Assembly (NCBI RefSeq): GCF_003334385.1
Contig: NZ_QOWN01000007.1
Length of the DNA: 64,000 nt
Direction: 5' to 3' (one strand)
From: Escherichia coli
Lineage (GTDB): Bacteria; Pseudomonadota; Gammaproteobacteria; Enterobacterales; Enterobacteriaceae
The notes under the pieces are model-generated. The model was not told the origin of the DNA, did no database searches, and was given only the letters and a program-made list of their open reading frames with translations. Below are positions 8,715-53,800 of the stretch, piece after piece; positions within the stretch are counted from its first letter, which is position 1; every line of letters starts with the position of its first letter. The position numbers and the translations under genes were made by a program.

Positions 8715-9773
8715 TTATTTGCGCAAGGCCCGGCAAATCAGATTCGATAGCAACTCAAGCTGATGTGCCGTTTCCATGTTCAGCCACACATAACCATAGA
8801 TTGGTGTTTCCACAACCTTCAGGTCATGGTGGTTATTGAGCAACTGACGCAGCTCTTCCACAGCATCGTTCAATTTTTCCGTATTGGCAAAAACCGGCTG
8901 CGGATTACCTTCGTACAGCGCATGAACAAGGCTCAGCAGTATTTGCTGCATCATGTGCTGGGTATCACGAAGTTTTTGCGCGTTCAATAACACGAAATGG
9001 CTGGGGCGCGTGGCCCAGTACGCATTGATTTGCAACTCCAGCATACAAACCAGATTGCGGTTAATGGTCTGGATACCTTCATATATCGATTTTGGAATAC
9101 GGGTTTCTTTGCTGGCGGGCGCAATCAGCCCACGCATTTTCACGGCATCGGTCAGGAGTTTTTGTAGATGGCTTTCCAGACGTGGGCGTTCGAGTAAGTT
9201 CGGTGAGAATGCTGATTGATAGACCCGATTATACTCGGTCAGACTTTTCGCCAGTTGAATGCGCCAGTGGATGAACGCCCGTTGTGGCCAGATACCGGTA
9301 AACAACATTGCCAGTAAAGAGCCGAGGATCACATCGCCGCTTCGCCATAACGCCGTATCAATTTCACCTGTCGGGGAACCCACAACAATTGCCAGCGTCA
9401 CCCCAATCAATAAACCTTGATACGGTTTCTTGCCCAGCGCCAGCCAACCGCAAAGGAACATGGCCGCCGCGCACCAGACTAACATCAGCGGTAACGAGAT
9501 TAACTCCAGTTGCAGAGCGATAAGACCTAATATCGAACCCAACACCGTACCGCCAATACGTTCGAAGGCACGAGGGACAACGTTACCCCAGAACGAGATT
9601 GGCCCCATAATCACCACCATGGTGACCAGCGGCCAGGTGCTTTCAGGGATAGTAAACAGGCGGATAATGAGAAAAGTGAGCAGGAATGCCAGCGCGACCC
9701 GAGTACCATGCACAATGCGGTAATGGCGGTATACCCGGATTTCAAACGGGCTTAATGACTTATCGGCAAGCAC
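8715..9773 (-). CDS. yeeA: Inner membrane protein YeeA (FUSC-like)
   Basis: 352 aa multi-TM protein, synteny with sbmC. Confidence 0.85.
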   Translation of the reverse strand: MLADKSLSPFEIRVYRHYRIVHGTRVALAFLLTFLIIRLFTIPESTWPLVTMVVIMGPISFWGNVVPRAFERIGGTVLGSILGLIALQLELISLPLMLVWCAAAMFLCGWLALGKKPYQGLLIGVTLAIVVGSPTGEIDTALWRSGDVILGSLLAMLFTGIWPQRAFIHWRIQLAKSLTEYNRVYQSAFSPNLLERPRLESHLQKLLTDAVKMRGLIAPASKETRIPKSIYEGIQTINRNLVCMLELQINAYWATRPSHFVLLNAQKLRDTQHMMQQILLSLVHALYEGNPQPVFANTEKLNDAVEELRQLLNNHHDLKVVETPIYGYVWLNMETAHQLELLSNLICRALRK

Positions 9774-16245: not shown

Positions 16246-16511
16246 GGTCATTCTCCTTTACGGTGATAACCGTCGCGTAAGCAAAAAATTGCCCCATTTT
16301 TTTGGATTCCTCAGCGACAACAACTGTCGATTTTTAGTAAATATCTATCCGGTACGAAGCCCGGCCTCTTGGTATGAATGATTGGTTTGAAGCAAAAAAT
16401 AACCGACGCTGATGAAACGTCGGTTTTTAGTCATTTTTTGACAGCGGCGCATTGTGCCTAAATGGGGGGGAAATGACAAGAGAATGAGAGGCTTGTCATA
16501 ATAATTTTTCT

Positions 16512-19179: not shown

Positions 19180-19230
19180 ATGACACGCGTTCAATTTAAA
19201 CACCACCATCATCACCATCATCCTGACTAG
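19180..19230 (+). CDS. hisL: his operon leader peptide HisL
   Basis: MTRVQFKHHHHHHHPD* with seven consecutive His codons. Confidence 0.95.
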   Translation: MTRVQFKHHHHHHHPD

Positions 19231-19293
19231 TCTTTCAGGCGATGTGTGCTGGAAGACATTCAGATCTTCCAGTGGTGCATGAACGCATGAGAA

Positions 19294-19329
19294 AGCCCCC
19301 GGAAGATCACCTTCCGGGGGCTTTTTTAT
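19294..19329 (+). terminator. his attenuator terminator
   Basis: agcccccggaag-atcac-cttccgggggc followed by TTTTTTAT. Confidence 0.9.
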
Positions 19330-29495: not shown

Positions 29496-29650
29496 TGGGA
29501 CCCCCTTTTGATTTCTTGTTTGACACTTGCAGTTGCCAGACCGCAAGGTGTTTTAACAAATCAAAAGGGGTTATAATAACTGGCTCAAAGCTGAAAGCTT
29601 TCCGGAACCCCCAGCCTAGCTGGGGGTTTTCTTAGTATGAAACAAAATAA

Positions 29651-48799: not shown

Positions 48800-49285
48800 T
48801 TTTTTGCCTGATGCGACGCTGGCGCGTCTTATCAGGCCTACAAGACCCGAGCACAGAACCGTAGGCCGGATAAGGCGTTCACGCCGCATCCGGCATTCAG
48901 TGCCTGATGCGACGCTGACGCGTCTTATCAGGCCTACAGGTCCCGAGCACAGAACCGTAGGATGGATAAGGCGTTCACGCCGCATCCGGCATTCAGTGCC
49001 TGATGCGACGCTGGCGCGTCTTATCAGGCCTACAAGACCCGAGCACAGAACCGTAGGCCGGATAAGGCGTTTTACGCCGCATCCGGCATTCAGTGCCTGA
49101 TGCGACGCTGGCGCGTCTTATCGGGCCTACAAGATCCAAGCCCTGAACCGTAGGCCGGATAAGGCGTTCACGCCGCATCCGGCATTCAGTGCCTGATGCG
49201 ACGCTGACGCGTCTTATCAGGCCTACAGGTCCCGAGCACAGAACCGTAGGATGGATAAGGCGTTTTACGCTGCACCCGGCAACCG
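48800..49285. repeat. BIME array: about 10 REP palindromic units in alternating orientation
   Basis: Repeated gcctgatgcgacgctg(g/a)cgcgtcttatcaggcctac and gtaggccggataaggcgttcacgccgcatccggc units. Confidence 0.9.
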
Positions 49286-49308
49286 TTGTCGGAACCGAAA
49301 ACAACAAC

Positions 49309-50787
49309 TCACCCCGCCCGTAAAAGCATTTTCATTTTTTCGCTGCGACAAAACTGACGCTTCACTTCCACCACCAGCGGATGGCGCGACAGCACAATCA
49401 TCACCACAAACGCCAGCACGCCCGCGGCTATTTGCACCGCCAGCAGCATCCCCAGCGCCAGTTGCCCTTTCAGCACAATGCCCAGCACATAACTGACCAC
49501 CAGCGTCGGCAGCGAGAGATAAAACGGCAGCCACAAACTCAGGATGTACTGGCGATAACTGGAACCAAGAACCGGTTTAATCATCACGAAGTAACTCAGA
49601 ATGGTGTTGATAATCTGCACCAGCAGGAAACCGAGCGTGACGCCGATTGCGCCCGCCATCTGCCCACCAATAACAATCGCCGGAATAAACAGAAATGTTT
49701 TGAATACGTTGAATTTAAAGCTGATGTCGACCCGCGCTTTCGCCATCAGTAGCGAACCAATCGGGTTACCCACCGAACGCAGCAGACCCACCACACACAG
49801 CAATTGCAGCACCGGAATAATGCTGTTCCACTTCTCACCAAAGACCAGCGGTACAAAGTTATTTGACACCACCATCAGCCCCAGCAGCGCCGGAAAGTTG
49901 ATAATCCCCACCACCGACAGCAGCTTGTAGAAGTTGACGCGCAGCTTTTCGGTATCGTCCTGAATTTTGGCGAATGCCGGAAACAACACGCGGGTGATGA
50001 TCGGGTTCAGCTTCATCGGCGGCACAACGGCCACGTTGTACGCCAGGTTGTATCCCCCGGCCACGCCCGCGCCGAGAATACGCGCCAGCACCAGCGTCGA
50101 AAGGTTGGTGTTGAGATAGTTGATGATGCTGTCCGCCGTCAGCCAGGCACCAAAGCGTAAGTTCGGTGCCACCGACGCCAGCGAGAAATGCAGACCGGGG
50201 CGATAAATTTTGCGGCCAAAGTAGCCAAACAGCAGCGTTCTCACCGCACTATTGACCAGATAACCGAGGATCGCGGTCATCGCCAGCGGCCAGAAATGGG
50301 CGCTAACCACCGTAAAAGTGAAGCCCGCCAGTACCGCGCTGGTTTCGATCATGCCGATTTTGTTGAACTCCAGCTCCTTCTGCATCAACGCGCGGAACTG
50401 TTGCCCGTGGGGGATCACCACAAACGCCAGCGACAATGTTTTAATCAACGGTGCCAGGTCCGGGTTATTCAGCACGTCGCCGATGAGATCACTCAACAAA
50501 AACACCGCCACGCACACCACGATCCCCAGCCCGACGTTCAGCCAGTACAACGTGGTGAGTTCAAGGTGACTGATTTCTTTTCGCTGAATAATCGAGTTAG
50601 CGATACCAAAGTCAGAAAGCGTATCTGCCAGCGCGATGATCACCAGCGACACGGTAAGCAAACCGAACTGGTGGTTGTCGATAATCCGCGCCAGCACGGT
50701 CATCTGCACCAGCCCGAGGCCGATGATGATCACCGTGGCAATCGCCGACCACTTCGCGCCGCTGATGGTTTTTTCACGTAAGCTCAT
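49309..50787 (-). CDS. wzxC: Colanic acid flippase WzxC
   Basis: 492 aa MOP family multi-TM. Confidence 0.9.
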   Translation of the reverse strand: MSLREKTISGAKWSAIATVIIIGLGLVQMTVLARIIDNHQFGLLTVSLVIIALADTLSDFGIANSIIQRKEISHLELTTLYWLNVGLGIVVCVAVFLLSDLIGDVLNNPDLAPLIKTLSLAFVVIPHGQQFRALMQKELEFNKIGMIETSAVLAGFTFTVVSAHFWPLAMTAILGYLVNSAVRTLLFGYFGRKIYRPGLHFSLASVAPNLRFGAWLTADSIINYLNTNLSTLVLARILGAGVAGGYNLAYNVAVVPPMKLNPIITRVLFPAFAKIQDDTEKLRVNFYKLLSVVGIINFPALLGLMVVSNNFVPLVFGEKWNSIIPVLQLLCVVGLLRSVGNPIGSLLMAKARVDISFKFNVFKTFLFIPAIVIGGQMAGAIGVTLGFLLVQIINTILSYFVMIKPVLGSSYRQYILSLWLPFYLSLPTLVVSYVLGIVLKGQLALGMLLAVQIAAGVLAFVVMIVLSRHPLVVEVKRQFCRSEKMKMLLRAG

Positions 50788-53608: not shown

Positions 53609-53694
53609 GTCGTTACCCTTTTTCAGGCAATAGTTGGCCCTGACCGAAACGGCCAATTTTGTTTTTGTCGTTATTTACATCTCGGTTTCGCATT

Positions 53695-53800
<106 letters not shown>

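Follow-up and report, generated by a model that had tools for sequence, protein, structure and literature searches.

A strain-variable BIME-2 array of ten REPs in the wzxC-wcaK spacer of the Escherichia coli colanic acid operon

What fills the 564-nt spacer that runs from the wzxC stop codon to the wcaK start codon in the Escherichia coli colanic acid operon, and does it matter to the genes on either side? The question was considered in the window, that is, the whole 64,000-nt stretch of E. coli DNA analyzed here, which covers the his operon, the O-antigen cluster and the colanic acid region and matches E. coli MSI001 (NZ_CP076645) at 100% identity. A reading made from the sequence alone (the sequence-only reading) had recognized some five BIMEs, made up of about ten REP palindromes of two types in alternation, in the stretch separating wcaK from wzxC, in the middle of this operon. 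The assigned location was borne out by NCBIfam equivalogs together with RefSeq annotation, which identify wcaK, encoding a pyruvyl transferase, at 47464-48744 (-; TIGR04006, 935 bits) and wzxC, encoding the colanic acid flippase, at 49309-50787 (-; NF007773, 835 bits). WcaK and WzxC are in turn flanked on their outer sides by WcaL and WcaJ, respectively, with all four ORFs scoring far over the NCBIfam equivalog cut-offs, and PGAP annotates wcaL, wcaK, wzxC and wcaJ in the identical MSI001 record, with no CDS in the spacer. As wzxC and wcaK are both found on the minus strand, wzxC is upstream and wcaK downstream of the array in the transcript. The array is extragenic and inside the wza-to-wcaM operon, where it splits wcaK, wcaL and wcaM, the three genes at the operon's end, off from the rest of the cluster.

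Examination of the spacer with Tandem Repeats Finder revealed a single tandem array at 48805-49281 (period 96, 4.9 copies, 91% matches, no indels, score 803) with a higher-order period of 193 nt. The same array was recovered by a direct-repeat finder, such that the limits originally given, 48800-49285, changed only slightly. Partitioning by hand yielded five units of 96/97 nt. In each, a 37-nt Z2 REP (TGCCTGATGCGACGCTG(G/A)CGCGTCTTATCAGGCCTAC) is separated by a 19-nt linker (AAGACCCGAGCACAGAACC or a variant) from an inverted Y REP of 35/36 nt (GTAGGCCGGATAAGGCGTTCACGCCGCATCCGGCA), after which comes TTCAG. The count of ten REPs in five Z2/Y units was accordingly as predicted, and pairwise alignment showed the units to be 82.5-97.9% identical to one another. 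The Z2 REPs (-) of units 1 to 5 span 48805-48841, 48901-48937, 48997-49033, 49094-49130 and 49190-49226, respectively, with none showing more than a single mismatch to the Z2 consensus; unit 1 presents 0 mismatches, units 2, 3 and 5 match the consensus and unit 4 contains 1 mismatch, together with a divergent 19-nt linker (AAGATCCAAGCCCTGAACC). The Y REPs (+), all with 0-2 mismatches in the 19-nt half-site, span 48861-48895 in unit 1, 48957-48991 in unit 2 (2 mismatches, with a degraded stem base, GTAGGATGG), 49053-49088 in unit 3 (36 nt, with the loop variant GCGTTTTACGC), 49150-49184 in unit 4 (a half-site match) and 49246-49281 in unit 5, the most degenerate of the set. The Z2 REP of unit 1 reads GTAG-first on the minus (mRNA) strand, and the Y REP of the same unit reads GTAG-first on the plus strand. 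Along the mRNA, the wzxC TGA is followed by 27 nt, by the Y REP of unit 5, which is the earliest REP of the transcript, by the Z2 REP of unit 5 and so on to the Y and Z2 REPs of unit 1, the latter being the final REP, and then by 60 nt leading to the wcaK ATG. A GAGG ribosome-binding site for wcaK lies within these final 60 nt, at 48750-48753.

Such matches are hardly expected by chance. With up to 3 mismatches allowed, the Z2 consensus is matched six times in the 64-kb window, as compared to 0.00 matches expected, while the 19-nt Y half-site is likewise matched six times, as compared to 0.02 expected. For Z2 and Y alike, five of the six matches fall inside the array and the sixth lies at 53698-53780.

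That sixth match corresponds to the smaller REP pair that the sequence-only reading had also noted between cpsG and cpsB, and which proved to be present. This smaller BIME-2 of the cpsB-cpsG spacer (53698-53799) comprises a Z2 REP (53698-53734), an 11-nt linker, a Y REP (53746-53780) and a truncated Z2 arm (53787-53799), with the unit being bracketed by a 13-nt direct repeat, GCCTGATGCGACG, that corresponds to a Z2 arm (53699-53711 and 53787-53799). K-12 is without this REP pair and has kept a 14-nt Z2 arm, TGCCTGATGCGACG (K-12 locus 9069-9083). Judging from these sequences, the K-12 state would most simply reflect contraction by one unit between successive Z2 arms. An Rfam algC RNA motif (53613-53662, -; 78 bits, gathering score 33.8) adjoins the pair just upstream of the start codon of cpsG, which encodes phosphomannomutase.

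To which class does the wzxC-wcaK array belong? BIME-1 elements combine Z1 and Y REPs around a long L linker that often contains an IHF site and exist in single copy, whereas BIME-2 elements combine Z2 and Y REPs separated by short linkers and exist in multiple tandem copies, the number of which varies between strains (PMC3333891). The array is composed of Y and Z2 REPs, as reflected in both the consensus matches and the Rfam model considered below; successive REPs are inverted and separated by short linkers (19 and 5 nt); the units are in tandem and variable in number (4.9 copies here and 0-6 units elsewhere in E. coli); predicted folds describe imperfect palindromes with a GTAG foot and an internal stem mismatch; and the location, in the 564-nt spacer, is extragenic. 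All of these properties are shared with the BIME-2 family (Gilson/Bachellier, via Ton-Hoang, 2012; PMC3333891), from which the array differs in no substantive manner, and nothing specific to BIME-1 is present. Moreover, a 1.5-kb query around the array matched E. coli genomes at a median of 26 places each, in keeping with a dispersed repeat. The array is a BIME-2, an ordinary member of the dispersed REP/BIME family of E. coli. A CRISPR-like array was also considered and rejected, since the 'spacers' (5 and 19 nt) are themselves repeated and the units are classical REPs.

When folded as RNA of the operon strand, seven of the ten REPs are predicted to form hairpins, with free energies between -21.3 and -22.1 kcal/mol and z-scores between -5.3 and -6.2. 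These are the Z2 REPs of units 1, 2, 3 and 5 (-21.9 kcal/mol each) and the Y REPs of units 1 and 4 (-21.3 kcal/mol each) and of unit 3 (-22.1 kcal/mol). The remaining three, namely, the Z2 REP of unit 4 (-17.2 kcal/mol) and the Y REPs of units 2 (-12.9 kcal/mol) and 5 (-8.6 kcal/mol; z-score -1.1), are predicted to be weaker, with the stem base of the two Y REPs reading GGATGG rather than GGCCGG. In the predicted folds, an internal loop interrupts the stem, and the GUAG/CUAC tail is left unpaired. In the minimum-free-energy fold of the entire spacer, distant Y and Z2 units pair; this was set aside as a thermodynamic artefact of the repeats, as local hairpins should win co-transcriptionally. 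A scan of both strands of 48500-49600 revealed no intrinsic terminator-like site and no sigma-70-like promoter site. Indeed, the final REP on the mRNA is followed by AAAAA and not by the U tract that, together with a G+C-rich hairpin, makes an intrinsic terminator.

The number of units at this site was next compared across strains, a check that had been proposed along with the original description of the array. Accordingly, 5,426 complete E. coli genomes were searched using flank-only queries from which the array had been removed. Both flanks were present in 4,625 genomes, across which sixty records at even ranking steps were taken twice with different flank lengths (~59 genomes each). Insert size was calculated as the span minus the query length, and one example of each allele class was read as sequence. 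In samples 1 and 2, respectively, zero units were found in 8 and 8 genomes, one unit in 13 and 11, two units in 19 and 17, three units in 1 and 4, four units in 6 and 6, five units in 4 and 6, and six units in 5 and 2, with an internally deleted unit being found in 1 and 2 genomes and a BL21-type allele in 4 and 3. The wzxC-wcaK site thus contains 0-6 units in the two ~59-genome samples, with a mode of 2, as compared to 5 in the window. Among the alleles that were read, K-12 MG1655 presents 2 units in a 275-bp spacer, O157:H7 presents 1 unit, RM14723 presents 6 units, FDN-24 presents one unit that has lost most of Z2 to an internal deletion, and BL21 presents an unrelated 161-nt spacer (locus positions 496-656) with a different G+C-rich palindromic repeat. 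The difference between the 275-bp spacer of K-12 and the 564-bp spacer seen here affects PCR and assembly over the cps locus.

Every sampled O157:H7 genome contains 1 unit and every sampled K-12 derivative contains 2, which argues that changes in unit number are slow relative to clonal spread and that the array is no fast switch. Unit variants are ordered differently in different lineages, with RM14723 containing 96+97-nt double-unit repeats, while in the alleles read, the Y REP nearest wzxC is always the GCGTTTTACGC variant. A unit number that ranges from 0 to 6 between lineages but is constant within clones is compatible with infrequent unequal recombination, or with slippage during replication, in a 96-nt or 193-nt register; amplification mediated by TnpA(REP), as has been proposed (PMC3333891), offers an alternative route.

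REP polymorphism at wcaK-wzxC is already known, and the array is a textbook BIME-2. Iguchi et al. (2011; PMC3158064) described REPs at wcaK-wzxC, cpsG-cpsB and wcaA-wzc, reported REP-containing indels between strains and noted that the level of similarity shifts at the wcaK-wzxC spacer. Variable REP number was hence described earlier for the same two sites as considered here, wcaK-wzxC and cpsG-cpsB; that study considered six O157 strains and counted single REPs, whereas the range of 0-6 units obtained here is wider. On the wcaM-wcaK side of the array, the window and K-12 share 96.1% identity, as compared to 97.6% on the wzxC side, a mild step only, and the notion of a sharp recombination breakpoint at the array was rejected. 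The array marks a mosaic junction beside the O-antigen region. O55:H7 presents an allele with no units, while the 1-unit allele of O157:H7 presents flanks 99.5% identical to the window, observations consistent with replacement of the region beside the O-antigen locus during the O55-to-O157 transition.

The empty allele was next examined for what it reveals of the site itself. It presents a 71-nt spacer in O166:H15 (L003, 496-566) and, judging by span length, in E2348/69 and O55:H7 as well. Directly after the wzxC stop codon, it opens with a perfect 13-bp inverted repeat, GUUGUUGUUUUCG-N10-CGAAAACAACAAC, that takes up the first 36 nt, and the 74 nt comprising stop codon and spacer are predicted to fold at -21.7 kcal/mol (z-score -3.4). 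Comparison of window positions 48780-48804 and 49282-49308 with the O166:H15 empty allele revealed that in occupied alleles, the whole array lies within the loop of this 13-bp hairpin, the arms of which have decayed. In the window, the decayed left arm lies at 48780-48793, while the right arm, CGAAAACAACAAC, lies at 49296-49308 and abuts the wzxC stop codon. An 8-bp direct repeat, CGTTGCCG, further flanks the array on both sides, whereas the empty allele contains a single copy of it. The left copy lies at 48792-48799, and the right copy (49284-49291) reads CGTTGTCG, matching at 7 of 8 positions here and at 8 of 8 in RM14723.

How a BIME first inserts has been described as still to be elucidated (PMC8266576). 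It is conceivable, although rather doubtful, that the occupied and empty alleles record such an event, namely, insertion into a hairpin loop with duplication of an 8-bp target. Precise deletion between the 8-bp repeats could equally explain the pair of alleles. Neighbor-joining trees of the two flanks disagree on the direction of change between empty and occupied states: the empty allele branches close to the base of the wcaK-side tree, but in the wzxC-side tree it falls within the occupied alleles, and its distances are similarly discordant (4.6% on the wcaK side vs. 1.7% on the wzxC side). E69, the most divergent E. coli lineage sampled, is occupied. The hairpin of the empty allele, with the array in its loop and the 8-bp repeat at its borders, is a minor new point rather than part of the textbook description.

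To determine how the same junction appears in other genera, one genome per species was scanned with a degenerate pattern for the WcaK N-terminus, yielding at least 120 loci; those listed included no Escherichia albertii or Escherichia fergusonii. Among the listed loci, the wzxC-wcaK spacer is mostly 13-30 nt long, as in Enterobacter cloacae (17 nt) and Citrobacter werkmanii (23 nt). Citrobacter amalonaticus contains a REP pair of its own at this junction and Salmonella arizonae contains one REP-like hairpin, while also among the listed loci, repeats of the form CCCTCTCCC...GGGAGAGGG...GGGTGAGGG are found in Lelliottia, Pluralibacter, Enterobacter kpr-6, Buttiauxella and Phytobacter. The palindromic repeat of BL21 belongs to the same kind. 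The wzxC-wcaK junction is evidently permissive for palindromic repeats and was invaded independently several times. In Escherichia sp. MOD1-EC7003 (L080, 3430-5060), the cps locus has decayed. What is left of a truncated wza is joined to the last 127 residues of Wzc; next come a REP array, of two 95-nt units and more, and directly thereafter wcaK, with wcaA to wzxC missing. The position of this junction inside REP arrays suggests REP-to-REP recombination.

What, then, might such an array do? Three effects can be proposed by analogy with REP325, a BIME-2 of 12 REPs, and with earlier work on REPs. First, the ten hairpins on the cps mRNA (-) would block 3'->5' exonucleases and so stabilize transcripts ending past wzxC. 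Second, the ~560 nt of untranslated, structured RNA could cause partial and partly Rho-dependent attenuation of read-through into wcaK-wcaL-wcaM. Third, at the DNA level, the Y REPs may serve as preferred gyrase cleavage sites, making the array a likely strong gyrase site. In the case of REP325, partial and partly Rho-dependent attenuation of downstream expression (~8-10-fold) and stabilization of the upstream mRNA have been reported (bioRxiv 10.64898/2026.03.23.713779), while genome-wide, gyrase cleavage is enriched in BIME-2 elements, with Y REPs being preferred (PMC6379681); wzxC and wcaK go unmentioned in the supplements of the latter study. Taken jointly, BIME-2 identity and these roles in mRNA protection, attenuation and gyrase action offer the probable account of the array, with the identity being close to certain and a measurable regulatory effect at this locus having about an even chance. 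Any such effect would be quantitative and dispensable, given how natural alleles span zero to six units and, in some strains, contain an unrelated repeat. The array itself is dispensable, and that zero-unit and unrelated-repeat alleles are common likewise argues that selection places little weight on it. The weakness of two of the ten hairpins was counted against the functional account. The operon is presumably read by RfaH-modified polymerase, with RfaH being recruited at a JUMPstart/ops element that precedes wza and falls outside the window. Such polymerase could suppress or blunt Rho-dependent attenuation at the array. Although the array matters little by itself, the natural series of 0-6 units would offer a handy test bed for dose-dependent REP attenuation and stabilization, by which the REP325 results could be extended.

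The strongest competitor to this functional account, less probable but to be taken seriously, holds that the array is purely neutral or selfish DNA, a passenger repeat whose copy number drifts and that exerts no measurable effect on cps expression or topology. Variation from 0 to 6 units between strains, the unrelated repeat found at this site in BL21-type strains and the 13-30-nt spacer of most other genera among the listed loci are all as such a passenger would predict, and REP effects are reported to be context-dependent and often absent, with mRNA half-lives not being uniformly changed by REPs (bioRxiv 10.64898/2026.03.23.713779). However, seven of the ten hairpins are predicted to be strong (-21 to -22 kcal/mol), an untranslated gap of 564 nt would hardly leave mRNA decay and polarity wholly unaffected, and REP325, the closest studied analogue, exerts effects of 8-10-fold.

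At the other extreme, unit number could be adaptive, with the array serving as a selected rheostat that tunes expression of the late genes wcaK, wcaL and wcaM relative to the upstream cps genes in a lineage-specific manner. The allelic series is indeed discrete and stable within clones, and palindromic repeats entered the same junction independently in several genera. Yet recurrent invasion is equally expected at any permissive intergenic site after a stop codon, and unit sequences decay within arrays. Selection of this sort is accordingly considered improbable.

More improbable still is that the array represents a cluster of naRNA4-like small RNA genes, the products of which bind HU and organize the nucleoid. 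The sole Rfam family to match the array is RF02564 (naRNA4), with four matches of 71.6-79.7 bits exceeding the gathering score of 59.5, and nucleoid organization through HU and naRNA4 has been proposed for REP325 (PMC4550694). The matches above threshold are, however, all on the plus strand, antisense to the operon, while the operon-sense minus strand scores only 42.2-55.4 bits, and no promoter-like site is present near the array (48500-49600). Moreover, REP325 was recently reported not to compact the nucleoid and REP-REP contacts to be absent (bioRxiv 10.64898/2026.03.23.713779). The RF02564 model was built on the Y/Z2 units of REP325, and the naRNA4 match is read here as reflecting a shared repeat family and not small RNA genes. 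REP325, found at yjdM-yjdN, comprises 12 palindromic units, is the source of naRNA1-6 and is built of the same Y/Z2 unit type as the array. The two are also close in size, with the array containing 10 REPs and 6-unit alleles containing 12, and both lie between co-oriented genes of one operon. They differ in orientation relative to transcription, which is opposite in the array and is the reason why only its antisense strand reaches the naRNA4 gathering score, and in host operon, which here is a long, Rcs-induced polysaccharide operon.

That the array is instead an IHF-binding BIME-1 (RIP/RIB) element is, on its sequence, already refuted. Apart from a generic earlier statement that such arrays can bind gyrase and IHF, nothing speaks for this reading. 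The gyrase half of that statement stands, insofar as the array belongs to the gyrase-associated BIME-2 class, while the IHF half does not. Although BIME-1 elements belong to the same superfamily and also contain a Y REP, they are characterized by Z1 in place of Z2, by a long L linker with an IHF site and by single copy (PMC3333891), whereas the array is multicopy, lacks both a Z1 REP and a long L linker, having linkers of 5 and 19 nt, and includes none of the three matches to the IHF core, WATCAANNNNTTR, found in the window.

Lastly, the mechanical ORFs that overlie the array at 48752-48985 (-), 48804-49100 (+) and 48993-49307 (-), of 77, 98 and 104 aa, respectively, are effectively refuted as real genes: while listed in the mechanical ORF track, they match no NCBIfam family, are not annotated by PGAP in the 100%-identical record, consist of repeat units numbering 0-6 by strain and overlap on opposite strands, in agreement with the sequence-only reading, which had called the ORFs over 48752-49307 artefactual. 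Gene callers and ORF tracks should mask the array.

Two further observations concern the surroundings of the array. A 25-nt direct repeat of 80% identity, with one copy (CCAGAATAAGTAATTTCATTTTTTC, 48726-48750) at the start of wcaK and the other (CCCGTAAAAGCATTTTCATTTTTTC, 49317-49341) at the 3' end of wzxC, is probably due to chance. Elsewhere in the window, Rfam matches correspond to a JUMPstart element at 43477-43515 (-; 60 bits) and to the His operon leader, STnc490 and STnc240 at 19206-19329 (+), 29505-29628 (-) and 16392-16466 (-), respectively.
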